Positions 397-57,660 of a DNA stretch of 64,000 bases are shown here, piece after piece. Within the stretch, counting starts at the first letter, position 1. Each line of letters begins with the position of its first letter. Where the stretch lies: sequence record PQ572755.1, one strand, 5' to 3'. The notes below the pieces were generated by a model. That model made no database searches, had not been told where the DNA came from, and saw nothing but the letters and a program-made list of their open reading frames with translations. The position numbers were made by a program, and so were the translations under genes. The stretch is from Escherichia phage CAU_ECP01.

Positions 397-432
397 TACC
401 CTGTCAAAACAAATGAAGCAACGGAGAATAAA

Positions 433-681
433 ATGAAATTACAACGCCAAAGCATTAACGACTTTGAAGTTAAAGGCAAATGGTACTTCAACATCCTTGA
501 TAAAGATGCTGAACTCCTTGAACAAGCTGAAACATCTTTACGTGAAATGGGTTGGAATGAAGAATGTGATGGATGTCCACTCTACGAAGATGGTGAAAGC
601 GCAGGATTCTGGATTCACCATTCTGATGTTGAATCGTTTAAAGCCGATTGGAAAGTTGTTAAGAAAAATCTGAGGAAATAA
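433..681 (+). CDS. hypothetical early protein
   Basis: 82-aa ORF downstream of the early promoter with AGGAGA-like SD; an overlapping alternative-frame ORF was discarded. Confidence 0.45.
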   Translation: MKLQRQSINDFEVKGKWYFNILDKDAELLEQAETSLREMGWNEECDGCPLYEDGESAGFWIHHSDVESFKADWKVVKKNLRK

Positions 682-18527: not shown

Positions 18528-20017
18528 TTTTAGATATTTTAAACCAAATAGCTGCGATCGGTTCTACTAAAACAAAACAAGAAATCCTTAAGAAAAATAA
18601 GGACAACAAATTACTTGAACGTGTGTATCGTTTAACATATGCACGTGGTATCCAGTATTATATTAAGAAATGGCCAGGACCAGGTGAAAGGTCTCAAGCG
18701 TATGGTCTTCTTGAATTAGATGACATGTTGGATTTTATTGAGTTCACATTAGCCACTCGTAAACTCACTGGTAATGCTGCAATTAAAGAGCTCATGGGTT
18801 ATATCGCTGACGGTAAACCTGATGATGTAGAAGTCCTTCGTCGTGTAATGATGCGAGACCTTGAAGTAGGTGCTTCAGTGTCTATCGCGAATAAGGTGTG
18901 GCCTGGACTTATTCAATTGCAGCCACAGATGTTAGCATCTGCATATGATGAGAAATTGATTACTAAAAATATTAAATGGCCTGCATTTGCTCAATTAAAG
19001 GCAGATGGTGCTCGTTGTTTCGCTGAAGTTCGCGATGATGGCGTTCAATTCTTTTCTCGTGCTGGTAACGAATACCATGGTCTTACCCTATTAGCAGATG
19101 AACTAATGGAAATGACTAAAGAAGCCCGTGAAAGACACCCTAATGGGGTTTTAATCGACGGTGAATTGGTTTATCATTCATTTGATATTAAAAAGGCTGT
19201 GAGCTCAGGAAATGACCTGTCGTTCTTATTTGGCGATAATGAAGAATCCGAAGAAGTACAAGTTGCAGACCGTAGCACTTCAAATGGTTTAGCAAATAAA
19301 TCTCTTCAAGGGACTATTTCTCCTAAAGAAGCGGAAGGTATGGTTCTTCAAGCCTGGGACTATGTTCCTTTAGATGAAGTCTATTCTGACGGCAAAATTA
19401 AAGGTCAGAAATACGATGTTCGTTTTGCTGCTCTTGAAAATATGGCTGAAGGCTTTAAACGAATTGAACCTATCGAAAACCAGATAGTTCGTAATCTTGA
19501 CGAAGCTAAAGTGGTTTATAAAAAATATGTTGACCAAGGTCTTGAAGGTATTATCCTTAAAAACCGTGATTCATATTGGGAAAACAAACGCTCTAAGAAC
19601 CTAATTAAATTTAAAGAAGTTATTGATATCGCTTTAGAAGTTGTAGGATACTACGAACACTCTAAAGACCCTAACAAATTAGGTGGTGTCGAACTCGTAT
19701 CACGTTGTCGTCGTATTACAACCGATTGTGGTTCAGGGTTTAAAGATACAACTCATAAAACAGTTGACGGTGTAAAGGTTCTTATTCCTTTAGATGAGCG
19801 TCATGATTTAGACCGTGAACGATTAATGGCTGAAGCTCGTGAAGGTAAATTGATTGGACGTATTGCTGATTGCGAATGTAATGGTTGGGTTCATTCTAAA
19901 GGCCGTGAAGGTACTGTAGGTATTTTCCTTCCAATTATTAAAGGGTTCCGTTTTGATAAAACAGAAGCGGATTCATTTGAAGACGTATTTGGACCGTGGT
20001 CCCAGACAGGTTTATAA
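18524..20017 (+). CDS. 30: ATP-dependent DNA ligase
   Basis: 497 aa; N-terminus MILDILNQIAAIGSTKTKQEILKKNKDNKLLERVYRLTY matches T4 gp30; adenylation motif KADGAR. Confidence 0.95.
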   Translation: MILDILNQIAAIGSTKTKQEILKKNKDNKLLERVYRLTYARGIQYYIKKWPGPGERSQAYGLLELDDMLDFIEFTLATRKLTGNAAIKELMGYIADGKPDDVEVLRRVMMRDLEVGASVSIANKVWPGLIQLQPQMLASAYDEKLITKNIKWPAFAQLKADGARCFAEVRDDGVQFFSRAGNEYHGLTLLADELMEMTKEARERHPNGVLIDGELVYHSFDIKKAVSSGNDLSFLFGDNEESEEVQVADRSTSNGLANKSLQGTISPKEAEGMVLQAWDYVPLDEVYSDGKIKGQKYDVRFAALENMAEGFKRIEPIENQIVRNLDEAKVVYKKYVDQGLEGIILKNRDSYWENKRSKNLIKFKEVIDIALEVVGYYEHSKDPNKLGGVELVSRCRRITTDCGSGFKDTTHKTVDGVKVLIPLDERHDLDRERLMAEAREGKLIGRIADCECNGWVHSKGREGTVGIFLPIIKGFRFDKTEADSFEDVFGPWSQTGL

Positions 20018-32808: not shown

Positions 32809-32837
32809 GTCAAATTACCATGTAATAAATATAGTTA

Positions 32838-32845
32838 TATTTATA
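32838..32845 (-). promoter_or_regulatory. late promoter (TATAAATA) for uvsW
   Basis: TATTTATA on the plus strand about 30 nt upstream of the uvsW start. Confidence 0.5.
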
Positions 32846-32858
32846 ATGAGGAAATACT

Positions 32859-33527
32859 ATGATCGATAAAGACTATATTGAAGAGTTACGTGCTCTTTCC
32901 GATAAAAAGGAAGCCAAAGCTAAACTGTTCGAATATGCGAAACAATTTGGCATTAGTGTTAAGAAAACAAAATCATTCGATAATATTGTTATTGATATCG
33001 AAGAAGCTCTTAACGCACTGGCTGATGAACCGTTACCTGAAACTGATGGATTATCTATCACCGATTTAATTACTGCCGCGGATGATGTGGACGGTGTTAA
33101 TTTCACCAACGAAGAAGTTAAAGAAGAAGCTATTCTGTTGTTTGATTCTCCAACAGAACACGTTGAAGTATTAGAAGTTGTCGAACAAGAAAAAGAATTC
33201 GACCATGATAAATTTGAAGAAGCAATTACTAAGGTTGTTGAATCTGAAAAAGAGCCTGAGACAGAGGTAAATAAAGAAGTAAAATTTGTTCTGCCTGAAA
33301 ATTTTAGTCCTACACTCATTAAATTAGGCAAAGGTCCAGGATATGTTACTGTTCCTTGGTGGATTTATCAATGGATAGCCGAAACACCTGATTGGAAATC
33401 TCACCCAACGAGTTTTGTGCATGCTTCTGCTCACCAAACATTATTTAGCTTAATTTATTATATTAATCGCGATGGATCAGTTCTAATTCGTGAAACTCGT
33501 AATTCTTCTTTCGTAACATTAAAATAA
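32859..33527 (+). CDS. inh: acidic protein, possibly Inh (prohead protease inhibitor)
   Basis: 222 aa, very acidic; position between uvsW and hoc as recalled for T4 inh; identity not verified. Confidence 0.45.
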   Translation: MIDKDYIEELRALSDKKEAKAKLFEYAKQFGISVKKTKSFDNIVIDIEEALNALADEPLPETDGLSITDLITAADDVDGVNFTNEEVKEEAILLFDSPTEHVEVLEVVEQEKEFDHDKFEEAITKVVESEKEPETEVNKEVKFVLPENFSPTLIKLGKGPGYVTVPWWIYQWIAETPDWKSHPTSFVHASAHQTLFSLIYYINRDGSVLIRETRNSSFVTLK

Positions 33528-33536
33528 GGATAACTT

Positions 33537-34952
33537 ATGGCATTCACTGTCACGTTATCTCCTTTAACTCCTACAGGGGTTATTGGAGGTTCACAAACAT
33601 TCACTGCTACACCTGCAGGTGAAAGTCCAGATGGTACTATTACATACGTCTGGACTGTAGATGATATAGCACAGGAGTCTACGGCTGCTACAATGGATTA
33701 TACTCTTGCTTCTCCAGCAGGAACAAAAAAAATTAAAGTGGTTGCAACTAATACACTTTCCGCAGGAGATCCGGAAATAGCTGAAGCGTCAACAACTATC
33801 ACTGTTAATAAGAAAGAAAATAATTCTACCGTCGCTGTTACTCCGGCTTCTCCGGCTGCAGTAGAAATTGGAACAGCAACAACATTCACTGCTAATGTAA
33901 GTAATCAACCTAGTGGTGCTGCTATTGCTTATACATGGAAAGTTGACGGGGTCGCTGCTGATGGTCAAAAGCAATCAACCTTTGAATATACACCAACATC
34001 TGAAGGAACTAAGTCTATAACTTGCTCCGTCACAGTAACTGCAACTGATTACGTTGATAAAACAGTAGAATCATCAGCGGTTTCTTTGACTGTAAATAAA
34101 AAGGCTAATTCTTCAACACTAAAAATTACGCCTGAGTCTCCGACTACGGTCTTTGGTGTTCCTATTACTTTAACTGCAAATGTCTCTAGTGCACCCTCAG
34201 GTGCTACTACATCATTCCAGTGGTCAATGGATGACAGTAATATTCCGGATGCAACTTCTGCTACATATAAATTCACTCCAACCGAGGTCGGAAGTAAAAC
34301 TCTTAAATGCACTGTATCTGTTTCTGCAACAAATTATGTTACAAAAGAAATTTCAGCAGAAGCAACAGTAGTAACTAATAATGCGACATTTAATAGTGCC
34401 ACCATTTCTTTATCTCCGCCATCAGTTAATACTACTGTTGGTGGAACTGCAACTTTAACAGCATCTGTTACTGGTGCTCCAGGTGATACTAATATTGTGT
34501 ATTCTTGGAAGAAAGACAACGTAGCAGAAAGTAATTCTACCAATACTTACAGTATTGATACCTCCTCAGCTGGTACTCATACAATTAAAGTTGAAGCAGT
34601 ATTAACTAAAGATAATTATACTCCAAAGACAATTAGTTCAACCGCTGAAGTTGTTATTGCTGAACGGACTCCAATTGAACCAGAAGGTGAATTACCTTAT
34701 GTTCATCCTCTTCCACACCGTACTTCAGCTTACATTTGGTGTGGTTGGTGGGTTATGGATGAAATCCAAAAAATGACTGAAGAAGGTAAAGATTGGAAAA
34801 TCGACGATCCGGGTAGTAAGTACTACTTGCATCGTTATACGCTTCAGAAGATGATGAAAGACTATCCAGAAGTTGATGTTCAAGAATCACGTAATGGATA
34901 CATCATTCATAAAACTGCGCTAGAAACTGGTATCATTTATACATATCCATAA
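33537..34952 (+). CDS. hoc: outer capsid decoration protein Hoc with four tandem Ig-like domains
   Basis: 471 aa; four ~90-aa repeats (TFTA...Y.W.VD...TNYV/TDYV) plus conserved capsid-binding C-terminus. Confidence 0.8.
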   Translation: MAFTVTLSPLTPTGVIGGSQTFTATPAGESPDGTITYVWTVDDIAQESTAATMDYTLASPAGTKKIKVVATNTLSAGDPEIAEASTTITVNKKENNSTVAVTPASPAAVEIGTATTFTANVSNQPSGAAIAYTWKVDGVAADGQKQSTFEYTPTSEGTKSITCSVTVTATDYVDKTVESSAVSLTVNKKANSSTLKITPESPTTVFGVPITLTANVSSAPSGATTSFQWSMDDSNIPDATSATYKFTPTEVGSKTLKCTVSVSATNYVTKEISAEATVVTNNATFNSATISLSPPSVNTTVGGTATLTASVTGAPGDTNIVYSWKKDNVAESNSTNTYSIDTSSAGTHTIKVEAVLTKDNYTPKTISSTAEVVIAERTPIEPEGELPYVHPLPHRTSAYIWCGWWVMDEIQKMTEEGKDWKIDDPGSKYYLHRYTLQKMMKDYPEVDVQESRNGYIIHKTALETGIIYTYP

Positions 34953-34957
34953 TCGTA

Positions 34958-34980
34958 AGGGGCTTCGGCCCCTTTCTTCG
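34958..34980 (+). terminator. intrinsic terminator (AAGGGGC-UUCG-GCCCCUU plus U-rich tail)
   Basis: Hairpin 34958-34975 followed by TCTTCGTTTT. Confidence 0.7.
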
Positions 34981-35046
34981 TTTTAAAGCATATAAACCAC
35001 AACTTGAGATTGATGTATATAATGGCACAAACCAAATAATACTGGA

Positions 35047-37966: not shown

Positions 37967-37980
37967 TATTTATAAAGATT

Positions 37981-38010
37981 GTTTACAACGTATTTGGTAT
38001 GTGATACTAT
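37981..38010 (+). promoter_or_regulatory. T4-type early promoter
   Basis: GTTTAC 37981-37986, 18-bp spacer, TACTAT 38005-38010. Confidence 0.6.
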
Positions 38011-38040
38011 AGACTTATCAACTACAGAGGAGTAAACAAA

Positions 38041-38310
38041 ATGACTAAAGCACGTTTCTTACGAGATACTTTAAAAGTTCTGGAAGCTGAAGCAGTTAAG
38101 TTAGTAGAAAAATATGGTGCAAAAGTTAATGGTAATGCCTTCAACAAAGTATGGATGAAAGTTGATTCTGAAGCTCGAGCTAAAGGTTATTGGGCCACTG
38201 ATAAACTTGCATCATTCAAAAACAAAAACGGTTCTCCGGCATATGTCCAAGAAGGTATGCCTAATTGGCAAAATATTTTGAAAACTTACATCGAAATTGC
38301 ACAGAAATAA
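38041..38310 (+). CDS. hypothetical protein, opposite-strand gene between 24 and 23
   Basis: 89-aa ORF with GAGGAG SD, own early promoter and a shared terminator. Confidence 0.45.
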   Translation: MTKARFLRDTLKVLEAEAVKLVEKYGAKVNGNAFNKVWMKVDSEARAKGYWATDKLASFKNKNGSPAYVQEGMPNWQNILKTYIEIAQK

Positions 38311-38320
38311 AACCAAAAAT

Positions 38321-38338
38321 GGGAGACCGAAGTCTCCC
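38321..38338. terminator. terminator hairpin (GGGAGAC-UUCG-GUCUCCC on the minus strand), main terminator of gene 23
   Basis: Identical 18-nt hairpin to 14939-14956 and 57668-57685; U-rich tract follows on the minus strand. Confidence 0.7.
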
Positions 38339-38362
38339 AAAATAAGATTTAATCAATTAAGA

Positions 38363-39931
38363 TTAGATGCCTTTTACATATACACGGCGGAAGTAAGCGT
38401 TCTTACCAAGGCTGTTCAGGATAGACGGCATACCGGACTGGATGCGAGCACCTGGAGCCTGCAGGGAACTTTCAGCAAATGGGTTAACACCGATACCGTA
38501 ACGAGTTTTAAAGCCCATTACCGGCTGGAAGTTCTTAGGATCGGAACCACGCAGTGGGGTAAGTGCAACGTAAGGAGCATAGTAAATACCTGCATCCATT
38601 TCGTTAGCGCCTTTGTAACCAACGGTGAAGTAATCCTGTTTAGCATACTGGTCGATGTATACGCGGTATTTACCACCAAGTACACCGGCAAATACAGACT
38701 TAGTAGTGTCAGTATTAAAACCAGAAGCCAGACCCTGTGCAGCGTAAGAAATACCAGTATCAACTGAAGCCAGTACGTTAACTACGTTACGGGAAGCGAT
38801 AATGAAGTTACCTTCACCACGACCGGTTTGACGAGCAATTTCAACTGCTTCTTTATCAATCTGGAACAACAGAGATTTAAAGCTTTCACCGGCCCAACGA
38901 GCACCACGGATGTCAATCGGGTCCTGGAAGTCAAATACACCAGCTTTAGAACCAGGAGTCAGGGTCATACCAGATTTACCGACCTGTGCCGAGTAGTTAA
39001 TCCAATCAACAACTTCACGGTTGATTTCTAGCATAATTTCTGTAGCCAGAATACCGCTCAGTTCAGCATCAGCATCCATACCGTGTACTGCACGGAGGTC
39101 TTGTGCTAATTCGATAGAGTAAGCAGCTTTCAGCTGGCGAGATTTAGCTTCGATAACTTGTTTATCGATACGGAAGCCCATTTCATTCCATGGGTTATCG
39201 GTAGAACCGTTGAAACCTTCCTGGAGTTCAGCGATAGAAGTAGCCATACCTTCAGCGATTTCTACCAGTGCACCAGCTTCCATTTGTTTCTTAACTTCTG
39301 CATCTAATTTAGCTGCATCAGTTGCACCAGAATCAAGTGTTACGACAGCAGAAGCTTGCAGATATACAGTACCAGTTTCTTGGAAGAAGTGAGTATAGAT
39401 ATCACCTACAACAGTAGTAGTGTCAGCAGCCAGAGCTGGGAATTTCTTAGCAGCACCCTGACCAGAGAACATCGCGTCTGGGGCATACATCGGATGGAAA
39501 GCTTCTTTAGCGCCAGCAGCGATAGGGTCTTTACCATATACTGCACGGAGAGCAAATACCTGACCGGTCGGGCTGTTCATAGGCTGAACACCACAAATAT
39601 CAAAAGCGATCAGATTAGGAATAGCACGACGAACCATACCCATAACTGCCGGCCCAATCTGGGTTACTGCACCAGAGGTTTGACCTGCTGCGATGTTCTG
39701 AGCATTATAACCGTGGTCACCACCAATTTCAGCTTCGGTCAAGAAAGAACCAAATGCCTGAGCGATTTTCTCGTCTTTATATTCAGGGGATACTTCGAAA
39801 TCTTTTTCCTGGTTTTCGAAGATTTTAGCGATAATAGCCTGCTTGCTATTAGCGATTTCCGGCAGGCCTTCACCTTCCAGCAGTTCTTTCCATTTGTCTA
39901 CGAGCTGAGCTTTAGTTTTGATAATAGTCAT
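38363..39931 (-). CDS. 23: major capsid protein gp23
   Basis: 522 aa; near-identical to T4 gp23 across the whole length from memory. Confidence 0.95.
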   Translation of the reverse strand: MTIIKTKAQLVDKWKELLEGEGLPEIANSKQAIIAKIFENQEKDFEVSPEYKDEKIAQAFGSFLTEAEIGGDHGYNAQNIAAGQTSGAVTQIGPAVMGMVRRAIPNLIAFDICGVQPMNSPTGQVFALRAVYGKDPIAAGAKEAFHPMYAPDAMFSGQGAAKKFPALAADTTTVVGDIYTHFFQETGTVYLQASAVVTLDSGATDAAKLDAEVKKQMEAGALVEIAEGMATSIAELQEGFNGSTDNPWNEMGFRIDKQVIEAKSRQLKAAYSIELAQDLRAVHGMDADAELSGILATEIMLEINREVVDWINYSAQVGKSGMTLTPGSKAGVFDFQDPIDIRGARWAGESFKSLLFQIDKEAVEIARQTGRGEGNFIIASRNVVNVLASVDTGISYAAQGLASGFNTDTTKSVFAGVLGGKYRVYIDQYAKQDYFTVGYKGANEMDAGIYYAPYVALTPLRGSDPKNFQPVMGFKTRYGIGVNPFAESSLQAPGARIQSGMPSILNSLGKNAYFRRVYVKGI

Positions 39932-39948
39932 TTGTGTTAACCTTTAAA

Positions 39949-40761
39949 TTAGAAACGAGATGCGACTTTCGCATATAAACTTACATTAGAATTCTGTTCT
40001 ACCTGAGTTGTGGTAGTGTCAACTGCTTCGGCAACAAAATTAAGACCGGCAGCGTCATTGTCAACTGTATTTATACTTTCGGTAATAGCGGCTTCTTCTT
40101 TAGTAGAACCTTTAACCATTTCTACAATAGCAGTTAACTTAGTACCAAATGCGTCAGAATAATCCATACCTTCAACCAGGCCAATAACTTTTTCTTTCTG
40201 AGATTCAGTAAGGTCTTTTACGCTTTCATTAATAGCGGTTTCACGCTGAACGTAATTGATATATGCATCACGTTTGGTAACTTCTTCGAACAAACGAGCG
40301 GTTTCTTCTTTATGTTCGGCCAGCTCTTCTTCCATTTCTGCTACAACATCTACAGATTCTTCTGGAACAACAACGTTATGTTCAACAAACAGTTCTTTCA
40401 GACCACCAAGCATGGATTCGAACAAATCAGCTTTAATGCCTTTATCAACTGCGATTTGGTTTTCTGTGAGCCATTCTTTTGCAAGATGGTCCAGGAATTT
40501 AGAAGCTTGTTCAGCCAATTTTTTATCAGCTTTCTCTTCAGCATCTTCTTTAGCCTTTTCAACTTCTTCTTCGGCTTTTTCGGCGATAGCTTTGATATGA
40601 GATTCAGCCAGTTTGACTGCTTCCTGCTTAACGGTGGCTTCGAATACAGTGCTGAAATTAGCTTTAACGTCCGGAGACAGTTCTACTGATTCGAAAACAC
40701 TATTAAGAGCAACTGAAGTCTCGATATTCTGAGCTTCTTTCAAAAGTTGTTCTTTGATCAT
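39949..40761 (-). CDS. 22: prohead core scaffold protein gp22
   Basis: 270 aa, Glu/Lys-rich coiled-coil; T4 gp22 269 aa. Confidence 0.85.
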   Translation of the reverse strand: MIKEQLLKEAQNIETSVALNSVFESVELSPDVKANFSTVFEATVKQEAVKLAESHIKAIAEKAEEEVEKAKEDAEEKADKKLAEQASKFLDHLAKEWLTENQIAVDKGIKADLFESMLGGLKELFVEHNVVVPEESVDVVAEMEEELAEHKEETARLFEEVTKRDAYINYVQRETAINESVKDLTESQKEKVIGLVEGMDYSDAFGTKLTAIVEMVKGSTKEEAAITESINTVDNDAAGLNFVAEAVDTTTTQVEQNSNVSLYAKVASRF

Positions 40762-40791
40762 TTTAGTGTCCTGTGGTTTAGATTACATTAT

Positions 40792-40799
40792 TATTTATA
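40792..40799 (-). promoter_or_regulatory. late promoter (TATAAATA) for gene 22
   Basis: TATTTATA on the plus strand about 30 nt upstream of gene 22 start. Confidence 0.55.
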
Positions 40800-41436
40800 A
40801 TGCTTTTAAACTCTCTGCGAGAGCTTTAAATGCTTCATCAGCACTGTTTTTGGTGATTTCCACCGAATTTTCTGATTCTGATATTTGTTTAGGAGTAACC
40901 CAAGCATCTGGAGCAGAAGGTCCCCATACGGCATCTACGCCGACGGTTAATTTAAATCCTTCGTTCACGATACGGTACCCTTTATTGGTGTCGGTTAAAG
41001 AACCAAGACCACGAGAGGAAACACCTGGAATCCAACCAGCTCGTATATTAGCAGCTAATTTATCGCCGGGACCATGGTCGCCTTCAATAATTCTAGCGCG
41101 TCCATATACATCGTTTCCTTTCCACCACATATCTTCAATAATGATAGCGGCTTGCATAGGGTCAACATTTGCACGAGGTGGATGATTTAATTCTCCAAGG
41201 GCTTGTTTGGTTGCGACTTGTTCTTTAATATAGTCGCTTACGGCTTTTTCCAAAACACGTTTAGGATATAAACGTTTATTTCGGTTAACAACCTCTGCCT
41301 GAAGAAAAATACCTTCTATATAAAGCCCTGGTTTTAAGCCAGAATCTTTTCCATCATGAGATTCCAACATTGGAACGCCATCAATAATCTCACCGGGTTG
41401 ACCCCAAGTTTCAATAAGTAACTCGGGTTTATTCAT
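40795..41436 (-). CDS. 21: prohead protease gp21
   Basis: 213 aa (T4 gp21 212 aa); synteny. Confidence 0.85.
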   Translation of the reverse strand: MNKPELLIETWGQPGEIIDGVPMLESHDGKDSGLKPGLYIEGIFLQAEVVNRNKRLYPKRVLEKAVSDYIKEQVATKQALGELNHPPRANVDPMQAAIIIEDMWWKGNDVYGRARIIEGDHGPGDKLAANIRAGWIPGVSSRGLGSLTDTNKGYRIVNEGFKLTVGVDAVWGPSAPDAWVTPKQISESENSVEITKNSADEAFKALAESLKAL

Positions 41437-41861
41437 TAGCTTAATCCTAATGCTTTACGACGTTTAAGAGCTTTTTTACGCTTACGCATGCCTTTAACTT
41501 GGCCTGAAGGGTTAGCTTTTTTAGCTTTAACGACCTTACGAGCGATTTGTCTACGTTTTGCTTTAGAAAGACCGGTTGTTTGGAACGCGTTACGTTCACG
41601 AGTTTTACGGTCTTTAGTGCGGGTGACTTCACCACGAGAAGAAACATGTTTAACGATAAACTCATTTAACTGCTCTTCATTAATAATGGAAGCCATTGCA
41701 ACAGCTAAATCCGTTTCAGTTTCAAGCATGTTCTCGATAATAGTATTTATATCGTCAATATCGAGAGCAGAAGACAATGCATCGATTCGGCCCTGTGCTT
41801 CAGGAATAAGTGCTTCGACATTTTCGAGTACCAATTCATAAGATTCAGGGATAAGATACAT
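41436..41861 (-). CDS. 68: prohead core protein gp68
   Basis: 141 aa as in T4; basic C-terminus. Confidence 0.6.
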
Positions 41862-42097
41862 TATTCATCGTCCTCATCATCTTCGTCTTCGTCGTCATCG
41901 CCTTCATCAGCGTCGTCTTCCGAAGCTTTAGCTTTCTTTTCTTCTTCAGGTTCTTCGCCTTCAATCAAAAATTGAGAAGCGATTTCTGCTTTGCGTGCTT
42001 CAATCAAACGAACCGTTTTTTCTGCCATTGCACTTTCAAAAAACTTTCGAGTAGCAACGAGGTCGTTTGATTTAATAGCTTGAATTAAATCGTCCAT
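41861..42097 (-). CDS. 67: prohead core protein gp67
   Basis: 78 aa with poly-acidic C-terminus ([18 protein letters not shown]). Confidence 0.6.
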
Positions 42098-43668
42098 TAA
42101 AAATCCTCTTGTTCTTGGTCGGGGTCTTGGAAACGAGCCTCTTTCGACTCTTCTTCAATTTGCTTAGCCTCTTGTTCAATTTCCTCGTCAGACATCTGAA
42201 GAATATCTTTCATAGCTGTTCTGTGAGAAATATATTTACCAATAAATGGTTCGGCCATCTGAAGCATATTAATGCGACGCTCCAGAATCTCAGCATCCTT
42301 TAATTCCGAGAAATAACTATCCCGATGAAATTTTATCTTAATATTATTTATTTCATCATTCCACTCATCTTCTGTAATAATTCCTTTAAGAATTAAATTA
42401 GTTTTAAGCGGGTCTAGGAATATCTCTTCAAATTTATGTTGCAGCTCACGAATAAATTTACCAAATGTCAATTCATCTCGTGTAATAGAAGTACCAGCAT
42501 CAAACTGTATACCACCTTGGTCGCTTGGAATACGGGTAATAGGAATACGTAAAGCCATATAAAGCGCATTACGGAACCAACGTACATCTTCCATATTTCC
42601 GGTATTATCTGCACCCGGTAATGTATCAACTTCTGTTACTGCTTTACCATCACGTCGTTGTAACCAATAATCTTCGGTCATCGACATAATATGCTGCTGG
42701 TTTTTAATCTTGCCTGTAGTAGCATCATATGCAATACGGTTTTTCATCGTATTCATAACATGTTGCATATGTTCTGCTGCTTTTCTTGAAGGCATATTAC
42801 CTGTATCAACGTACCATACACGACGATCGGGAGCACGAGTAATACGATAAATTACAACAGCATCTTCAAGAAGTTTTAATTGGTTCGCCGGCTTAATAGC
42901 CCGATGCAAATAACCAATGATATTTTTACCACAGCAATCAACTAAACCAGAATGGGCATAAACAATCGCGGCTTTAGGGATTTTTATTTTTGTGCCAGCT
43001 TCATATATGCGACCATCACAAGCATAAGATTCGTGTGATGTGTCATAAATGAAATATTCTTTATAACCCTTGACTATTTTAACACCGGCTTCAGTGGTTG
43101 TAATAACTTCACGGACATATTGAACTTGACGTGGGTCTAAACGACGAAGCTCTTTAATACCTTCTTTAGGGCGTTTAGGGTCAATAATTTTATGGAAGAA
43201 AATTCGAGAATCCACATACCAACGTCTAAAATGATCTGAACCTTTACGTTGGAAAGATAAATGATTTAACACTTCGTTAAATTCATCCAACATCATTGAT
43301 TTGATATTTGGACTAAATTTTGTGTTGTCTAAATTTATAGAAACGACTTCTGTATCATCTTCATATACGATAGCATCGGAAACTATTTCGGAGACTGCAT
43401 TATCCACTTCATAGTTCGTCATCAAATTTCGATACGTATCGATTAATTCACGGGTTGATTTGAGCCCTGGTTCTTGACTACCGAACATTCTCTGAAACAT
43501 AGCATTATATGTTTGCTGTGCTTCATTTTCAGATACTTCGTATTCTTTCGCACCGTCGTCCAATTTTGGTGTGGTGATCGATTCTAAATTTTCTTTTTCT
43601 TGGTCTTTGTAATCACGTTCGTCCATTTTTGCCCATGGAGCAAACAAACTTAAGATATTAAATTTCAT
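42097..43668 (-). CDS. 20: portal vertex protein gp20
   Basis: 523 aa (T4 gp20 524 aa); synteny. Confidence 0.9.
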
Positions 43669-43696
43669 TGTATTCTCCGAATGGGAATTATAGTTA

Positions 43697-43704
43697 TATT
43701 TATA
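43697..43704 (-). promoter_or_regulatory. late promoter (TATAAATA) for gene 20
   Basis: TATTTATA on the plus strand about 29 nt upstream of gene 20 start. Confidence 0.6.
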
Positions 43705-43731
43705 TGGACTTCTCCGTCATCACGGGAAGCT

Positions 43732-43745
43732 GGGGATTTCTCCCC
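43732..43745 (-). other. stem-loop (GGGGA-GAAA-UCCCC) after gene 19
   Basis: 5-bp G/C stem with GAAA loop between gene 19 stop and the gene 20 late promoter. Confidence 0.4.
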
Positions 43746-43752
43746 AACCAGA

Positions 43753-44244
43753 TTATTCCCACCAATCAAGAGCAAGAGTTACTTCGAACGTTTCAATCTC
43801 GTTATTCGAATCCCAGTCAAGAGATACTTCACCAACGTTAGTAGGCCACAAGCCAACAATTTCAACTTCTTTAGTGACCGTTTTAGCATCACGAGCAAAT
43901 TGACGAACGATAGCAGTCTTTTTATATTCAGCAGGTTTACCACCGGTAATTTCATTACCTTGGCCTGCTGCAATACCTTGCCAATCAACAAATTTCTGAC
44001 GAATACTATGAGCATCGTCGTTCATTACTGTAATAGTCCAATCATCGAATGTACGATCACCGGCCACGTTAATTTTACGGTTCATATAAGAAACAGGAAC
44101 CTTTTCAACAATTGCAGCAGGAAGAGCCGTAGCACGACACTGGAAGCTAAAGTTTTGCCCAAGATAAGAGATTTCTACTTCGAACAGGTTAGGGCGAGCG
44201 AAATCACCAGATTCGAAGGCGCGAGTTACATCATCTACAAACAT
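43753..44244 (-). CDS. 19: tail tube protein gp19
   Basis: 163 aa as in T4 gp19. Confidence 0.9.
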   Translation of the reverse strand: MFVDDVTRAFESGDFARPNLFEVEISYLGQNFSFQCRATALPAAIVEKVPVSYMNRKINVAGDRTFDDWTITVMNDDAHSIRQKFVDWQGIAAGQGNEITGGKPAEYKKTAIVRQFARDAKTVTKEVEIVGLWPTNVGEVSLDWDSNNEIETFEVTLALDWWE

Positions 44245-44316
44245 ATTAGCCTCTGTAGTAATATGGGCTTAGGATTAACCAGATGCCCATAGAATTAATT
44301 TTTAAACGATATAGTA

Positions 44317-44324
44317 TATTTATA
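44317..44324 (-). promoter_or_regulatory. late promoter (TATAAATA) for gene 19
   Basis: TATTTATA on the plus strand directly 3-prime of the post-gene-18 hairpin. Confidence 0.5.
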
Positions 44325-44344
44325 TGGGCTACCGAAATAGCCCA
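44324..44344 (-). terminator. stem-loop / partial terminator after gene 18 (AUGGGCUA-UUUCGG-UAGCCCAU)
   Basis: 8-bp perfect stem between gene 18 stop and the gene 19 late promoter. Confidence 0.5.
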
Positions 44345-44356
44345 TCAGGCGTCTTA

Positions 44357-46339
44357 TTAACCACCTACAGCACCAATCAGTTCGTCGAAATCGGCACCAG
44401 TTGCTGTTGCTACAAAGTTCAACGTAATATAATTTATCGAGCGGGCAGGTTGTAAGTAGAAAGTAGCTACAAATTCATTACGGTCGATAACTGCTGGGGT
44501 GTTATTGGTAGTATCACAAACAACTTTAAAGTTATATACACCACCGAGAGCTTTAATACCCTGTAGATATTGAGAAGTCTCCGTACGGAAAGAAGAACGG
44601 GTAAATGCGTTGTTCAATTCAAACAGGCGATATTTAGATGCTGAACCAATGTTCGTTTTAACCATATTGAACAAACGACGAACGTTAATACGGTCAAATG
44701 GTGAAGGAACGGAAGTGGCAGTTTTATCGCCGTACAGAACATATCCGTCACCACCGGTACCAGTAACAGGGTTAATAGCTTCCTGATACAAACGATCACG
44801 TTGTGGTTGACGAGTTTCAATTGCAAGCTTAATAACGTTAAGAATTTGTCCACGGTTATAACCGGCCGGAGACATCCAAGGCTGAGAAATATTGTCTGTG
44901 CGAGCACAAAGACCGGCAATATCAGCAGCTAACGGAACCCAACGATTCACATCGTTATATTTGTCGTATTGATATTTATAGTTACCGTCAATAGCAGCAT
45001 AAGTAGAACTTACATTAAAGTTATTATCAGTGTAAGATCCTGATGCAGTACGCCAATCAACCAGATTATCAACTGCACGATTAACAGGAATACCGACTAT
45101 AGTTGCACGTGGTGGTGAGCAAAGAACCAAGCAATCTTGACGAGAATCACCAATTGCTACAACATGTTTCTGAACTGTAGAAGCAACTTCTAAAGATTCA
45201 CCTGCACAAGAACCGGCAATAAACAACTGCGCATTAACAGATTCGCGGTCCGCAAACAAATCCCAAGCTTCCATTAAATCACCAGCGTCAACCGTTTCAT
45301 TAGATGATAAGCCACCACTCAGTTTGATTACACCAGAGAAACCTTTTGGCCAACCTTGTGCAGTAGCGAAAATATAATTGCTTGCGCCTTTAGCAAAGAA
45401 ATCATCAATAAAGATATTACTACCATAAATATCGCGTTCACCGCGTTTAGTAGAAAGAACTACACTCTGGACTACAGCATCGTTACGACGAACGATAATC
45501 GCATATTGGTCATCAGTTTGTGGGCCATACCCAAAGATTGCTTTAGCAGTAGATGCGCGAGTACCACCATCAGGATAAATTTTTAACTGGGCTGAAGCAC
45601 CTTTGTCATAGTCTGCTTTAGATACGATTTCAATTTCGAGCCGGTCGCCAAGTTCACCAGGATAAAGAGCAACTACGCCTGGGACACCATATTTTTTAAT
45701 AGATTCTTGGAAAGTTAGAGAAGTAATAGCTTCTTCTGAAGTTTCAACTTCAGTCAACAGAATACCTGAATCGGTTACGATAGAACCAATTGTAATAACG
45801 CCAGAGAGTCCAGAAGAAGAACCGGCAACTTCGGCGGTCCAGTTAGAACCTAATGCCGGATATTCATTAATTTCTTTTGCACGAGCAATAATTTTACCGG
45901 TTGGGATATAAATGTTAAGGATTTTACCATCGACATCAACTGAAGTGACATAACCATCTGCTTCAACAGTTTCGGACAAATACTTAACGATAATTTTATC
46001 ACCAACCGCATAGTTACTACCTGCAGCTGAGATTGTGAATTCGATATTGCCTGCTACAGGAGATGAGTTCTTAGCAGTATCACGATCAACTGCGCGTACA
46101 ACACGAAGGTCATTACCGTATTGAAGGAAGTTCATAGCAGACATGAAATAATCTGCTGTATCCGTATTAGGAGTACCAAACATATCAACCAATGCAACTT
46201 CATCGGTGATTTGTTTAATCTGGAATGCAGGGCCCCATTGGAATTTTCCAGCCAGAGCAGCAGTACCAGTGGAGTTATTAACTACAGTACTCTGTACGGT
46301 AGTTTCTTTGAGCTCAACGCCCGGAGAGAGAAGTGACAT
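44357..46339 (-). CDS. 18: tail sheath protein gp18
   Basis: 660 aa (T4 gp18 659 aa). Confidence 0.9.
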   Translation of the reverse strand: MSLLSPGVELKETTVQSTVVNNSTGTAALAGKFQWGPAFQIKQITDEVALVDMFGTPNTDTADYFMSAMNFLQYGNDLRVVRAVDRDTAKNSSPVAGNIEFTISAAGSNYAVGDKIIVKYLSETVEADGYVTSVDVDGKILNIYIPTGKIIARAKEINEYPALGSNWTAEVAGSSSGLSGVITIGSIVTDSGILLTEVETSEEAITSLTFQESIKKYGVPGVVALYPGELGDRLEIEIVSKADYDKGASAQLKIYPDGGTRASTAKAIFGYGPQTDDQYAIIVRRNDAVVQSVVLSTKRGERDIYGSNIFIDDFFAKGASNYIFATAQGWPKGFSGVIKLSGGLSSNETVDAGDLMEAWDLFADRESVNAQLFIAGSCAGESLEVASTVQKHVVAIGDSRQDCLVLCSPPRATIVGIPVNRAVDNLVDWRTASGSYTDNNFNVSSTYAAIDGNYKYQYDKYNDVNRWVPLAADIAGLCARTDNISQPWMSPAGYNRGQILNVIKLAIETRQPQRDRLYQEAINPVTGTGGDGYVLYGDKTATSVPSPFDRINVRRLFNMVKTNIGSASKYRLFELNNAFTRSSFRTETSQYLQGIKALGGVYNFKVVCDTTNNTPAVIDRNEFVATFYLQPARSINYITLNFVATATGADFDELIGAVGG

Positions 46340-46366
46340 TTTAATTCCTCTTAATTTGCTTTATTT

Positions 46367-48683
<2,317 letters not shown>

Positions 48684-48692
48684 ATTTACCTC

Positions 48693-49517
48693 TTATTGTT
48701 TTCTAGGACCAGGAGGGGTTGGTGGAGTCGGGATTGGAATATCATGAGTATAAGTTTGTTCAACTTCACCATTCCAATCTTGTGCTTCAACGTCTCTCGG
48801 TTTAATTTCTGTATCAACTGATTCAAAAACGCTGGCGGCTGTTTGAAGGTCTCGTTCATTAGCATGAAAATCAAGATAAGTCGTTTTAATAAGGCCTTCA
48901 GCTGCGCCTACCGGAGGATACATCCATCCATTTACTTCAAATGTTAATGACCACTCTAAACGTCGACGGGATAAATTATCACCGTCTATTTGTTCATCCA
49001 TTGCTGCCGCCATCCATACGACTTTAATATCCCTTTCAAATGGAATATCCTGCCCATATTGCTCAATCATAGTCGTATTAAAATGCGGCTGAAAATATGG
49101 AATAATTTGCTCAACGATTTGGAACATATCATCTTCGTAACGAGTAAAGATGCTCAGTTCAAAAATCATTTTAATTGGTGATGGGTTGTATTGGTCTACA
49201 ATATCCTTAGTCGATTTACTCAAAAGAGAGTTATTCAATATATTCGTTTTAAAAGTCGGGTTATAAACGAAATCTACCATTTGGAGATTTATACGTGGTA
49301 GAATAGTTTCGACTTTAGCCACATCTTCTTGTGAGTTTATAGAGGTCCATTTATTAAGTTTCATCATAAAGTGCTCTTTAGATGCATACGTAATAGGAAC
49401 TCTAATTAATTTATTGCCTGTAGTCAATTGACGGTTAACTTGGATATTTGAAAACAAATCGCCCATCATTGTGATATATCGCCTGAACGACGAGTTGTAA
49501 AAATAACCAAACATCAT
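48693..49517 (-). CDS. 15: tail sheath stabiliser / tail completion protein gp15
   Basis: 274 aa (T4 gp15 272 aa). Confidence 0.8.
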   Translation of the reverse strand: MMFGYFYNSSFRRYITMMGDLFSNIQVNRQLTTGNKLIRVPITYASKEHFMMKLNKWTSINSQEDVAKVETILPRINLQMVDFVYNPTFKTNILNNSLLSKSTKDIVDQYNPSPIKMIFELSIFTRYEDDMFQIVEQIIPYFQPHFNTTMIEQYGQDIPFERDIKVVWMAAAMDEQIDGDNLSRRRLEWSLTFEVNGWMYPPVGAAEGLIKTTYLDFHANERDLQTAASVFESVDTEIKPRDVEAQDWNGEVEQTYTHDIPIPTPPTPPGPRKQ

Positions 49518-49525
49518 TTCTCCTA

Positions 49526-49543
49526 ACCGGCCTTTCGACCGGT
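49526..49543 (-). other. short GC stem-loop upstream of gene 15 SD
   Basis: ACCGG / CCGGT 5-bp stem between gene 14 stop and gene 15 SD. Confidence 0.3.
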
Positions 49544-49566
49544 GTTTGCTTTATCTTATCTATTTA

Positions 49567-50331
49567 TTAATTCATAAACCCATCGTCAAATGGTGAATTT
49601 TGTCTACCACGGTTGTTAACTACTACATATGGTTCAACGTATTCACTTGCCTCTGAATTGATTTGCTCAACTTCAGAATATTCATCGATATTAATGTCAT
49701 GGATACCGTCAAGATTTCTAACAGGGTTAAGTTCCAAGTCACTAAATTCAGGTATATTGATACCTTCATTTTTCTGAAGCACCGGATTGATTTCTTCGCC
49801 AGAGTAAATAAACTTGCCTGCAGTAATTTTACGAATCGCATTTTTACCTACTTGATAGAACGGGTCATATGGTTCAACCCAGTTAATCTCAAACAAACTG
49901 TTGTCCATTGGGAAGTATATTAAATCACCTTCCTTAGGCTCCTGATTGTTGACCTGGTGTTTGAAAAGACCCGGGTTAATAGATAATGTAACTTCATCTT
50001 GAACTTGCATTCCGAAGTTGCTGAAGAACGATTTCGCTCCTTCATAACCTTCAAAAGAGTTCAGATACGCAGCAAATTTCCATGCTTTAGTAAATTTATT
50101 TTTAAGGTCCTCACCAAAGATAAGATCCACAGCAACATATTCACGTGGAACATAAAAACATTCAATACCGCGCATTTGTATGCTTTCTGCCACTAGAACA
50201 TCAGCTAATGTCTGACTATTCTCATAGTTATTAAAATTGACAAATGGATTGAGGATTTCGGTCTCATTTGTCTGAGAATACCCGCCACGATTTTCTAGTT
50301 TGGCGAAAAGATTTTTATCATAAGTCGCCAT
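49567..50331 (-). CDS. 14: neck protein gp14
   Basis: 254 aa (T4 gp14 256 aa). Confidence 0.8.
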
Positions 50332-50332
50332 A

Positions 50333-51259
50333 TTAACCTACCAAAATACCTGCAGGAGGGTCTAGTAAATATAACTCTTCTCGTAAAGCTTCTTTCTCTA
50401 AACGAGCTTCTTCAATTAATCGAACACCATCAACAGTGACACCACCAGGTAACATCATACCTTGATGTTTAGCAAGAATTTGTCCATTAAGCTCTTTAGC
50501 TAATGCAGTCGCATAATCTTTAACCCAGCGGTTGTTATATGCGCCTTGTTTGGTTGCAGGATCTTCACCGACTCGTCGTCCGTCCAAATTATGGTCTGGG
50601 TTGTCATAACGTTCAGAAAGAGACCATGAATCACGAGGACCGACCTGTCCGTACCCTACTGTATTTCCTACCATCTTATGGGTCTCGATATAAGAGCGAA
50701 CATACGATTCAACGATAATGACATCTTTCTGTCTAAAATTACCCATTACTTTTAATTGCTCGTTTGCAGAGTTAAACCAAAAATCCGGAAGAGGAGCAAT
50801 CATATCTTGAAGCATACCCATATAAGATACTAATTGAGAATAATACCCGAGGTCGGCACCAAAAGCGTTCGGACCGTAGAATTTACCACAATTACTACCC
50901 ATACCACCAGAAACACCGGCCATTCCTAAAAGGAAATCAGTGAACCAAGGATAAGTTGCATTACCGTCCATTGAAGTAATAGAGCCAACGTTTGTTCTTA
51001 TAATTCTTGTTACAGCAAATACATTAGAACCACGCATATCAAATACGCCATGACGATATTTTTCTTCGTCGTCAACAAAAAATACGTGGAAACCTTTATT
51101 CAATCCATCAAAATGATATTCGCCATAAAGTTCTAACGCCCGTGAAATACAATCATAAATTTGGTCTGCAGTTAATTCAACATTTACAATAGGAGCGCCT
51201 AAACGACGTAATATTACATCCTTTAATTCTTTAGGGTTTTGTGCATTATAACCTGACAT
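50333..51259 (-). CDS. 13: neck protein gp13
   Basis: 308 aa (T4 gp13 309 aa). Confidence 0.8.
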
Positions 51260-51271
51260 ATAAATCCTTTA

Positions 51272-51287
51272 GGGCCCGAAGGCCCTT
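51272..51287 (-). other. UUCG-tetraloop stem-loop (AGGGCC-UUCG-GGCCCU) after wac
   Basis: Between wac stop and the gene 13 SD; no U-tract. Confidence 0.45.
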
Positions 51288-51291
51288 TTCA

Positions 51292-52734
51292 TTAAGCTGT
51301 AGGAAGTTCAACCCAAGCACCATCTTTACGAACATAGAATTTACCGTCTGAAGGAGCATCTTCGATATATCCAGCCTCTTTAAGGGCTTGAATTTCTGCT
51401 TCTGCTGCAGCAAGGTCTGTTTCTAAAGTGGTAACACGCGTAGTTAAATCCGTAATTGTCGTGTCGTGGTTTTTAACTGTTGGCAATATACCACGTTCTT
51501 CTATGGTTTGACCGTTTGGGTTAGTGCCGCTTATAAGTTTATTTAAACTAGTTACTTGTCCTTTAATACCAGACGAATTAGTTCCCAATTCAGTTTGAAC
51601 GTTTTGAATGTTATTGCCTAGGTCGGTAACACCGGTTTCAAGAATACGAGTCCTATATAAAAGTGAACCAACCGGTTCAGGTTGTCCACCGTTTGAATCA
51701 ACTCCAACCACCTGATTAAGCCATGCTACATTAAAACGTAAACCACTAGAAGAATCAACACCTAAAACTGTGTTAATACCTGAAATGGAATCGGTATTTA
51801 ATTTGATCTTACCCTGAAGAGTAGTTGGTAAATCTGGAGAGCCTATAGTAGTTTCTAACGTTGTCAAACGTGGTTTAATACCACCAGGCGAGTTAATGTC
51901 TGAATTTATTGTTGATATAGAAAGACGATTGGCCTCGACTTGAGTTTTAATAGCGGTTGAATTAGGATATCCAACAAAATCTTTTAATGCCGCAATATCT
52001 CTGGTTTGGATAGAAATGGATGAATCAATACCGGATAAACGAGTGTAAACCGGTACTGTTAACGATGGTCTAGGACCTATTTCTTGACGGAGGTTTTCAA
52101 CTTCGGTTGTCAGAGCCCCAACATCAGAATCGGCAAATTTATTTTCTAACTCGGTTAAACGAACGCCTTGGTCAACCAACACTGAGCTGTTAGTAATAAT
52201 ACGTCGTTTCATCCCGGTGCTTTCATTACCTTCGGTCGGAACACCATTAATATCTTGTCCAGTATATTGCCCTAATTCGGTTTTAATCCAAAGAAGGTCG
52301 TTACGCACCGTACGATACACTGAATCTGTTTCTGGATTAACTACTCCGATATTAGCAATAGTATCATCTAGTTTTTCTTCAGTGTTTAAAATATCAACAC
52401 CGTGTGAATTTACAGTGTGTTTTAATACTTCAATATCATCAGTGTTATGTCCAATTTGTGCTAAAGCATCTACGTCACCAGAAACATCCAAGATACTTTT
52501 AATTGTGACAATATCAGCATTAGCGGTATCTAAAGATTCTGCGATAGTCTTAACGTTATCGTTAATTGTTTCTACATTTCGTTGAACTTCTGTTATTGGA
52601 CGGTTCATTACTCCTTCAGAACCGTATAACGTATCAGCGCCAGTTATTTCTTCTGAATTTTTAATCCAGTTTAAACGTTTTTGACCCTCATCAGGAGGGC
52701 CATCAACGTATGGTAGACTTTTTAATTCGATCAT
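51292..52734 (-). CDS. wac: fibritin (whisker antigen control)
   Basis: 480 aa, extended coiled-coil repeats, C-terminal foldon-like GYIEDAPSDGKFYVRKDGAWVEL. Confidence 0.85.
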   Translation of the reverse strand: MIELKSLPYVDGPPDEGQKRLNWIKNSEEITGADTLYGSEGVMNRPITEVQRNVETINDNVKTIAESLDTANADIVTIKSILDVSGDVDALAQIGHNTDDIEVLKHTVNSHGVDILNTEEKLDDTIANIGVVNPETDSVYRTVRNDLLWIKTELGQYTGQDINGVPTEGNESTGMKRRIITNSSVLVDQGVRLTELENKFADSDVGALTTEVENLRQEIGPRPSLTVPVYTRLSGIDSSISIQTRDIAALKDFVGYPNSTAIKTQVEANRLSISTINSDINSPGGIKPRLTTLETTIGSPDLPTTLQGKIKLNTDSISGINTVLGVDSSSGLRFNVAWLNQVVGVDSNGGQPEPVGSLLYRTRILETGVTDLGNNIQNVQTELGTNSSGIKGQVTSLNKLISGTNPNGQTIEERGILPTVKNHDTTITDLTTRVTTLETDLAAAEAEIQALKEAGYIEDAPSDGKFYVRKDGAWVELPTA

Positions 52735-52743
52735 TTTTTACCC

Positions 52744-54294
52744 TTAGTAATGGACTTTAATAATATAATTTAAAGATATATTCCATGGACGAGTCTCATA
52801 TCCGATAAGTCCTTCACGGTTAAGAGTGCCTGTTGCGTCGCGGTGACCACCTAATTCGAAGCCGTCATTTGTGAAATATGATGCGTTATCCCAATCAGCG
52901 TATTTTCTAGTACCCAAATAACCTTGATATACGGACGCTCCGAATGGTGCCTCATGACGTTGATATTCGCCCCATCCACCAGCGTGTTTATGATATGACA
53001 TTTGCTGTGCTTGGACACCACCAACATGCATACCGTCACATCCTACACCTAATCTATCCTTTCCATAGCCGTCTTGACCGCGATTATTTAAAATATGGCT
53101 GCCTGTACCAGCTCCTCTAACAAAAAGACCGCGCATGTCTGGAATTCCAGGATTATTCCAATCACCGCCAAATCTCGTTCCAACCACATTTCGATAGTCC
53201 GGAAATTGGTTCCCAGAAACGGTCCCGCCATGACATAAAACCCAACCTGGAGGAGCGCTATCACCTGCGAACATTTGAATTGTTCCAACAGGAACACGTT
53301 CAGATGCATATCGCTCTGTTGCAACCGGCTGGTCACCGTTTTTCCACATTCCGCCACGTGACCAAATTCCATTTGCTGTGAGATGGTCTAAATTTAAAGA
53401 ACCATTAATAGTTTGCCCACCGCGTGTATTAATTACATCCGCGTTCCATGCTAATGCTCCAGAGCTATCGCCTTCGGGTGCAACACCGGCCTGCGTCGTT
53501 AATTTTACGACTCCACGCATAGAACCGGTAGCTCCTCTACCATTTAGCGTTTCACCTGTTACAGCAACATCTCCTAAATTACTATTAATTTCCGCTTGTG
53601 TTCCTAGACGTATAACACCTTTATATTCTTGTGTTGCAACAGAATTCATAAAGGTGTATGGGGAAATTGCATATCCTTCGCGAAGAGTTCCTTGACGTGT
53701 TTGAGCCACCGTAGCTAAACGCACAACACCGGTAATAGATTCTGAAGCCGGGTCGTTATTAGGAGCTATTTGAGAAATTAATTTTATTGCTAATTGCTGA
53801 GTTTTAAGCGGTGTCATTGCCGTGGTATCATCAGACCCGGCAAGTGCAGCGGTTTGAGTTGCAATTTTAATAACACCATTAGTTGTTTCGGTGGAATAAC
53901 GAGTAGAGAACGTGTTATCAATAGTTTGGTCTAATTTAAGCGGAGTAATAGAAACAGTGTCTAAAGTGCCGGCAATGGCTTCCTCTTGTGTTGCATATTT
54001 AGTTACACCGTATTGTGTTTCTGACGCGTTCGGATACTGAAGTCTTGCATTTAATGTGGCGGGTGTAACGGCTTTAGTACTATTAAATCCATCAAGAACT
54101 TCTTGTTCTGTCGCTAATTGAATTACACCTTTTTCTGCTTCACTTGCGTCCGGAACACCTTTAACACCATACGCGCTAATTGAGGCTAAGGCTGCCTGGA
54201 CATTGGTTATTGAACTATCAAAATTTGACCCGGTAGGGTCAAATTCAACATATACAGATTCGTTCGAAACGTGTTGATATGTATTGTTACTCAT
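52744..54294 (-). CDS. 12: short tail fibre protein gp12
   Basis: 516 aa (T4 gp12 527 aa); synteny. Confidence 0.8.
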
Positions 54295-54968
54295 GCGGTT
54301 CTCACAAAATAATAAAAGGTTGTAGGTGAAATATGGTTGTCAAGAGTAATGGTTTGCGCACCTAGTAAATTCCAAGTGCCGTACCCGGACTTAGCCTGAG
54401 ACACTATTTCTTGAGAAACCGTGATACCATAAGAGGAATACGTTGGGAGTACGTGTCTTTGGTTATCTAAATATGTTATTTGTAATTTAGTCCCAACAGT
54501 GGGGTCATCTTTATACTCTGCAATAGCCAATTGGTCGGAAATCGCATTCCGGAGAGTAGTACGTAATTGTACAACAAATTCGTCGGCGGTCATACCTACA
54601 GTAGCATTAACAGGAAGTCCATAAACTTTTACAATAACAGGGCTTCCATCGGGCAAACTAGGGTCAGTTACACTTCCACTAAAGGACCAATAATCTACCT
54701 GTGAAGTTCCTTCAGGAGATACACCTGAGGTGTTAATTGTAACTGTTCCTACATCTGCTCTAGCAATATTATGAACATCGTTTATTGCAGATTCTACGTT
54801 ATCATCATAGAATCCTTTTGCCAATTGAGAAATAGTTACAGAACCTACGCCTTGGTTGTTTAAAATATCAATTTGAGTAGGATTTTTTCTAAATCCTAAA
54901 AAATCTGCTTCGCGGGATATTACTCCCGCTTTAGTACTAAGTATGGTCATTATGCAATCCTTACCCAA
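54291..54968 (-). CDS. 11: baseplate wedge / short-fibre attachment protein gp11
   Basis: 225 aa (T4 gp11 219 aa). Confidence 0.8.
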
Positions 54969-57627: not shown

Positions 57628-57652
57628 GTGGCTAATCCTTAATAGTTTATAC

Positions 57653-57660
57653 TATTTATA
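57653..57660 (-). promoter_or_regulatory. late promoter (TATAAATA) for gene 9
   Basis: TATTTATA on the plus strand about 26 nt upstream of gene 9 start. Confidence 0.6.

Follow-up and report, generated by a model that had tools for sequence, protein, structure and literature searches.

Four Ig-like domains in the Hoc decoration protein of an RB69-like Escherichia phage: the additional domain and the modular variation of hoc

What does a head outer capsid protein (Hoc) that is longer than that of T4 contain, and where does its additional length come from? The question is raised by the hoc gene of Escherichia phage CAU_ECP01 (sequence record PQ572755.1), of which a stretch of 64,000 nucleotides, referred to below as the window, was analysed. 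The hoc coding sequence occupies 33537..34952 on the + strand and encodes the head outer capsid decoration protein as an RB69-type allele of 471 aa plus the stop codon; the ORF begins with ATG and its reading frame is unbroken. The initial annotation, made from the sequence of the window, proposed that this protein carries four tandem Ig-like domains, one more than T4 Hoc.

Variation in the number of Ig-like domains in Hoc has already been published: the homologues carry from one to ten of them, and the Ig part is variable among close relatives of T4 (Fokine et al. 2023, PMC10385173). A four-Ig Hoc is also already known, as the annotated Hoc of the RB69-type phages, present in databases since RB69 was sequenced. 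A literature search found no structural or functional study of the RB69-type Hoc allele, and the papers that it listed did not combine Hoc and 'four Ig-like domains' in title or abstract. The present result thus carries little weight as a discovery and is useful as context.

Both protein matches and genomic position identify the gene as hoc. The window protein matches T4 Hoc (5vf3_Z) with E = 9e-141 in phmmer, and the PHROG 1149 family ('Hoc-like head decoration') with E = 4e-138. The gene for the inhibitor of prohead protease, inh (32859..33527, + strand; PHROG 1051, E = 5e-91), ends 9 nt upstream of hoc, and the local order, comprising uvsW on the minus strand, inh, hoc, the 24.3 and 24.2 homologues and rnlB, is that of T4 and RB69. 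Taken together, the ORF map, the PHROG matches and the T4 and RB69 annotations place the gene at the conserved position of hoc (uvsW / inh - hoc - 24.3 - 24.2 - rnlB - gene 24).

The surrounding DNA is nearly identical to that of RB69-like phages. RB69 itself shows 96.9% nucleotide identity to the window over 2642 nt around hoc, PECP20 shows 99.8% over the 2.6-kb hoc region, and RB69-like phages reach 98-99% over a 24-kb stretch. Because of this near-identity over both 2.6 kb and 24 kb, the window is assigned to an RB69-like Mosigvirus. The gene is very probably the hoc of an RB69-like T-even phage of this genus, encoding a monomeric capsid-decoration fibre with four Ig-like domains, of which the third is the additional one. 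No evidence against the identity of the gene or the domain count was encountered.

Several features flank the gene. An intrinsic-terminator-like hairpin, AAGGGGC-TTCG-GCCCCTT followed by TCTTCGTTTT (34957..34984, + strand), starts 5 nt past the hoc stop codon, and a terminator is annotated at the equivalent position in Tequatrovirus DalCa. Upstream of inh-hoc, no exact match to the T4 late promoter TATAAATA was found on the + strand; the best candidate on this strand, AATAAATA at 32824-32831, matches at 7/8 positions only. The gap between uvsW and inh is only about 50 nt long (window 32809-32858) and contains an exact TATAAATA, the T4 late-promoter consensus, at 32838-32845, lying on the minus strand and directed towards uvsW. 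The homing-endonuclease gene segE, which sits between uvsW and inh in T4, is missing in the window, as it is in RB69.

Exact TATAAATA matches number 16 in the window, with 7.5 expected, and 10 of the 16 lie on the minus strand within 37967-57660. This region consists mostly of long minus-strand ORFs, and the matches there are consistent with T4-type late promoters. It includes a 522-aa ORF (38363-39931, minus strand) of the size of gp23.

The count of four Ig-like domains in tandem, followed by a conserved capsid-binding C-terminus, was borne out by a domain HMM, AlphaFold2, Foldseek and the alignment to T4 Hoc, all of which agree. Internal repetition is apparent from the protein alone: shifting the sequence by 95 aa against itself gives 74 identities over 285 positions, compared with 26.3 +/- 4.8 in 5000 shuffles (z = 10), and no shuffle exceeded 48 identities at any offset from 60 to 130. 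The four segments also match one another pairwise in BLASTP (E = 2e-6 to 2e-22), with identities of 25-39% among the four Ig copies in the identity matrix. The domain HMM finds four full-length copies, at 1-93, 94-188, 190-283 and 285-377, with scores that are partly circular given that the model was built from window and T4 domains.

The repeat pattern described initially holds in part. The motif '[TS].T[FL]TA ... [YF].W..D' recurs in all four domains; 'ATNYV/ATDYV' is confined to domains 2 and 3, domain 4 having KDNYT in its place and domain 1 nothing.

Structure prediction and profile searches point in the same direction. AlphaFold2 (AF2) models residues 1-377 as four all-beta domains of roughly seven strands each, with pLDDT of about 90 or more. 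The top Foldseek matches in the PDB are themselves strings of four Ig domains (Dscam1 Ig1-4, Sidekick-2 Ig1-4 and ICAM-5 D1-D4), and the RB49 Hoc (3shs) is recovered as well. The whole protein scores above the Pfam gathering thresholds of PKD, PKD_4, Ig_3 and I-set. When domains are scanned singly, D2 passes for PKD (26.6 bits, cut-off 23.5), D3 (best 21.3 vs 27) and D4 (26.1 vs 30) stay below the gathering score, and D1 has no Pfam match. Since Pfam gives nothing for D1 alone, its fold is assigned from the AF2 model and from its homology with domain 1 of T4.

The N-terminal Ig-like string typical of Hoc is thus present as four domains, all on the + strand. Domain 1 (aa 1-93, 33537..33815), found by the domain HMM and modelled by AF2 as a beta-sandwich, is 60% identical to T4 domain 1. 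Domain 2 (aa 94-189, 33816..34103), of Ig-like/PKD type, is 54% identical to T4 domain 2 and ends in a VSLTVNKK linker. Domain 3 (aa 190-284, 34104..34388) has no counterpart in T4 Hoc. Domain 4 (aa 285-377, 34389..34667), which matches Pfam Ig_3 and I-set, is the counterpart of T4 domain 3, at 42% identity. T4 Hoc has 376 aa (PDB 5vf3 chain Z; hoc of NC_000866) and three such domains, compared with 471 aa in the window; the protein has one Ig-like domain more than that of T4, being neither a three-domain protein nor equal to T4 Hoc in length.

The remainder of the protein is a putative C-terminal capsid-binding domain (aa 378-471, 34668..34949, + strand), delimited by alignment to T4 Hoc and homologous to T4 residues ~281-376. 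Window residues 381-471 differ from T4 286-376 at 3 of 91 positions. The ESRNG loop is kept at 450-454, and W401/W405 correspond to the interface tryptophans W306/W310 of T4; in T4, both the loop and these tryptophans have been placed at the gp23* interface (Fokine et al. 2023, PMC10385173).

AF2 gives a poor model of this domain (pLDDT below 50, from a shallow, near-invariant alignment), and the fold is therefore assigned from sequence identity to the T4 domain, whose structure is solved. Scanned alone, the domain has no match in Pfam, which holds no Hoc C-terminal family, and PHROGs and PDB sequence matches were used in its place. By analogy with T4, we infer that this conserved alpha/beta domain would dock on the capsid so that every gp23* hexamer bears a single Hoc monomer at its centre. 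Monomeric binding at this site and dispensability for growth are characteristic of the T4-like Hoc.

Could the extra length be an artefact, produced either by duplication of a repeat during assembly or by the fusion of two ORFs? Repeat-bearing genes are prone to mis-assembly, and a short contig is the source of one related mosaic. However, the copies in the window are only 25-39% identical and offer no DNA repeat for an assembler to collapse or expand, the ORF runs without interruption, and the same 471-aa ORF is found in ~28 independently sequenced phages, including RB69. These observations effectively refute an assembly or fusion artefact.

The additional unit can be located by alignment. 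In phmmer, window residues 1-190 pair with T4 1-190 and window 289-471 with T4 194-376, leaving ~95-98 aa unpaired; as judged from this alignment, the unit extra to T4 is domain 3, aa ~190-284. Its closest relative within the protein is domain 2: D2-D3 is the strongest internal pair (BLASTP E = 2e-22, 41% identity), and D3 is 39% identical to the window D2 and 37-45% identical to the T4-type D2. Both domains have a lone cysteine at an equivalent position (C163 in D2, C258 in D3) and share an [ST]AT[ND]Y motif. Neighbour joining of 48 domains places the D3 type in a clade of its own, with 100% bootstrap, beside a joint clade of T4-type and RB69-type D2, with a bootstrap of only 53% at the node enclosing the D3 and D2 clades.

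These relationships identify D3 as an apparently ancient, strongly diverged paralogue of domain 2. No repeat was found at the DNA level within hoc, Tandem Repeats Finder returning nothing and direct-repeat seeds giving short matches only, of 39 nt or less; any duplication must therefore be old. The same result, with the low identities among the domains, rules out a recent tandem duplication as the origin of D3.

The database distribution of D3 bears on a different origin, namely horizontal capture from an Ig protein other than Hoc, for instance a bacterial adhesin or a tail or fibre protein of a phage. Promiscuity of Ig-like domains among the structural proteins of phages is known, and a PHROG 'tail protein' family matches weakly over aa 98-281 (E = 6e-7). 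However, when D3 was searched by tblastn against 50,697 phage records, 30 matched at 95% identity or more and the other 841 matching records were below 60%; the best match outside its own type, at ~47% among the matches listed, is to Hoc D2 domains. The matches listed that carry a feature name all stand under Hoc or capsid-protein annotation, which makes capture from another protein family unlikely. As the nearest non-self relatives of D3 are Hoc domain 2, with which it has the D2-specific single cysteine and the [ST]AT[ND]Y motif in common, such a capture is very improbable, and paralogy with domain 2 is the preferred origin.

A T4-type Hoc domain-2 match was seen at 19255-19533 of MG010123.1, where it is annotated 'capsid and scaffold protein'. 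This 32-kb record is named Staphylococcus phage SAJK-IND; a T-even hoc is odd there, and the record may be mislabelled or contaminated.

Whether the paralogue was gained by one lineage or lost by another is a separate matter. The initial annotation spoke of domain gain; the domain is indeed additional relative to T4, but the direction of the change is not polarised, D3 standing outside the D2 clade with 53% bootstrap. Because of this low support at the enclosing node, it would be about equally possible that the RB69-type lineage gained the domain or that the T4-type lineage lost it.

It can be proposed that the four-domain form was ancestral for the T4/RB69 group, and that the T4-type allele lost a domain when the stretch between linkers was deleted. 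That D3 branches outside the joint D2 clade is what a duplication preceding the split of the allele families would produce, although D3 sits on a long branch and may be misplaced around a node with 53% bootstrap only. Deletion forms do occur, namely the Hoc of PNJ-9, which is one domain short (Fu et al. 2024, PMC11853027), and the deletion chimera P0003.

Four-Ig Hocs are also found in Dhakavirus dhabil (470 aa) and Jiaodavirus ValerieMcCarty04 (469 aa). However, the extra domains of these two phages fall among other domain types, which makes them independent events rather than orthologues of the window D3; moreover, other relatives have three domains (Erwinia phage COW86c, whose record gives no genus; Hoc of 373 aa) or two (SP18, a Gaprivervirus; 282 aa). 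On balance, an ancestral four-domain form is possible, and we lean against it.

Phage dhabil has a second gene annotated as head outer capsid protein, of 288 aa (L005:3187-4053, minus strand), which lies ~270 nt downstream of the hoc encoding the 470-aa protein and on the other strand; the Ig HMM barely detects a domain in its product. Two Hoc-like genes per genome have been noted in Muldoon and PG7 (PMC10385173).

Among the 120 best-matching homologue clusters at 90% identity, three-Ig proteins of ~376 aa are the most frequent (80 clusters), followed by four-Ig (31 clusters, ~472 aa) and five-Ig forms (9 clusters, ~568 aa). The D3 domain type is present in about 30 GenBank phage records. It is seen only in the RB69-type allele family and is always followed by the last Ig domain of that family.

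The organization of these proteins was compared by clustering all Ig domains at 70% identity, which gave seven types. The window and its near-identical cluster read 6-3-4-5, with all four types private to the RB69-type allele family. T4-type alleles read 1-0-2, 1-0-0-2 or 1-0-0-0-2, the two longer forms apparently stemming from recent tandem copies of domain 2. In addition, four architectures are chimeric: 1-0-3-4-5, 6-3-2, 1-0-3-2 and 0-4-5.

The inter-domain junctions of the chimeras fall at the conserved VSLTVNKK linker. P0003 (379 aa, a deletion form) has an additional D1/D2 fusion junction inside the first domains, in a sequence known from a single 3.3-kb assembled contig that could be an assembly artefact. 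In the window, TVNKK is encoded twice on the + strand: by ACTGTTAATAAGAAA at 33801..33815, in the D1/D2 linker, the same 15 nt also ending the T4-type D2, and by ACTGTAAATAAAAAG at 34089..34103, in the D2/D3 linker. The D3/D4 junction (TVVTNNAT) is devoid of the TVNKK motif, and types 4 and 5 are always found together in the set, consistent with this motif-less junction.

Isolated phages confirm these forms. Over 24 kb, phage CCU7 (L010:979-2682) shares 98.8% identity with the window, but its Hoc is a five-Ig chimera of 567 aa, with T4-type D1-D2 joined to window-type D2-D3-D4. Junctions were compared at the DNA level for this one chimera, and the switch lies within the shared 15-nt ACTGTTAATAAGAAA.

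Whole alleles appear to be exchanged as well. Mosigvirus SHSML-52-1 (L009:979-2109) has a T4-type Hoc of 376 aa. Conversely, Tequatrovirus DalCa (L011:2703-4118; window ~33458-34950) has an RB69-type Hoc of 471 aa, with nucleotide identity to the window of 95-99% inside hoc and of ~40-80% in both flanks. This high identity in hoc, dropping on both sides, is the basis for proposing exchange of a hoc cassette, and it indicates that hoc alleles can cross the boundary between Tequatrovirus and Mosigvirus in either direction. Phages Paracelsus, PYps35T, F26, HEMP5, a15 and ES19 have the same blastn match limits as DalCa.

Since the chimeras switch allele type at the TVNKK linker, unequal recombination at this site is suggested. 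In the mechanism proposed, the repeated linker (ACTGTTAATAAGAA, encoding TVNKK) would recombine out of register and thereby alter the number and type of domains, and whole hoc alleles would also move between T-even genera. A stronger version would make this linker a built-in recombination site for adding, deleting and swapping Ig modules and for exchanging alleles across genera, by which fibre length and adhesion could be tuned quickly, with D3-D4 as a locked pair; we regard this as close to an even prospect. If true, linker recombination would tune the length of the capsid fibre and its adhesion specificity on short time scales, and the RB69-type D3-D4 pair, having no linker motif, would stay together as one fixed module of two domains.

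As regards function, the N-terminal string of four Ig-like domains would project outwards from the capsid. The T4 Hoc fibre is 180 A long and, by inference from T4 Hoc, that of the window would be longer by about one Ig domain. The window Hoc is acidic (pI 4.8), like other Hocs; such a surface would keep virions dispersed, and the protein would adhere weakly and reversibly to glycans or cell surfaces. The BAM model holds that phages adhere to mucus through Ig-like domains with affinity for mucin glycans, such as the fucose of MUC2. Residues linked to mucin binding in other Hocs are present in the window protein (E29 and G33, as in PNJ-6; S183-L184-T185, as in PNJ-9), and D341 in domain 4 aligns with T4 D246, which is also linked to mucin binding, their presence not being evidence of binding. 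The expectations on fibre length and adhesion are drawn by analogy with these other Hocs.

For users of T4 Hoc in display or mucus-adherence work, the RB69-type protein would offer a longer fibre whose Ig domains are only 42-60% identical to those of T4, and it adds one domain type that T4 has no counterpart of. Moreover, genus membership does not predict the type of Hoc, because hoc alleles and modules appear to have been exchanged between Tequatrovirus and Mosigvirus.

Among known Hoc proteins, the nearest to that of the window are those of PECP20 (WKM80810.1; 471 aa, 100% identical) and of Mosigvirus RB69 (NP_861884.1). The RB69 protein also has 471 aa, is 98% identical, with a few substitutions only, and has the same four domain types in the same neighbourhood.

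T4 Hoc (NP_049793.1; PDB 5vf3, 8t1x, 8t9r) is encoded at the same gene position and is likewise acidic, and its domains 1, 2 and last are homologous to those of the window at the identities given above. Nothing in it corresponds to window aa ~190-284. Divergence between the two proteins is much greater in the Ig region than in the C-terminus, to the point that blastn gives no match over 33874-34677.

The ime09-type Hocs of Tequatrovirus, with four (472 aa) or five Ig domains (~568 aa), have one or two ~95-aa domains beyond those of T4, inserted after domain 2. Like the window D3, these insertions belong to the domain-2 family. However, the ime09-type copies are recent, clustering with the T4-type domain 2 at 70% identity or more (1-0-0-2 and 1-0-0-0-2), whereas the window D3 forms a separate type, at most 47% identical to outside domains among the matches listed. 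From this difference, the ime09-type and window extra domains appear to be independent events.

Finally, the Hocs of RB49 (PDB 3shs), Muldoon (10 Ig domains) and PNJ-9 (2 Ig domains) are distant in sequence (E = 3e-5 to 3shs) and differ in domain number, but they follow the same principle as the window Hoc, in which a variable string of Ig-like domains is joined to a conserved capsid-binding domain.
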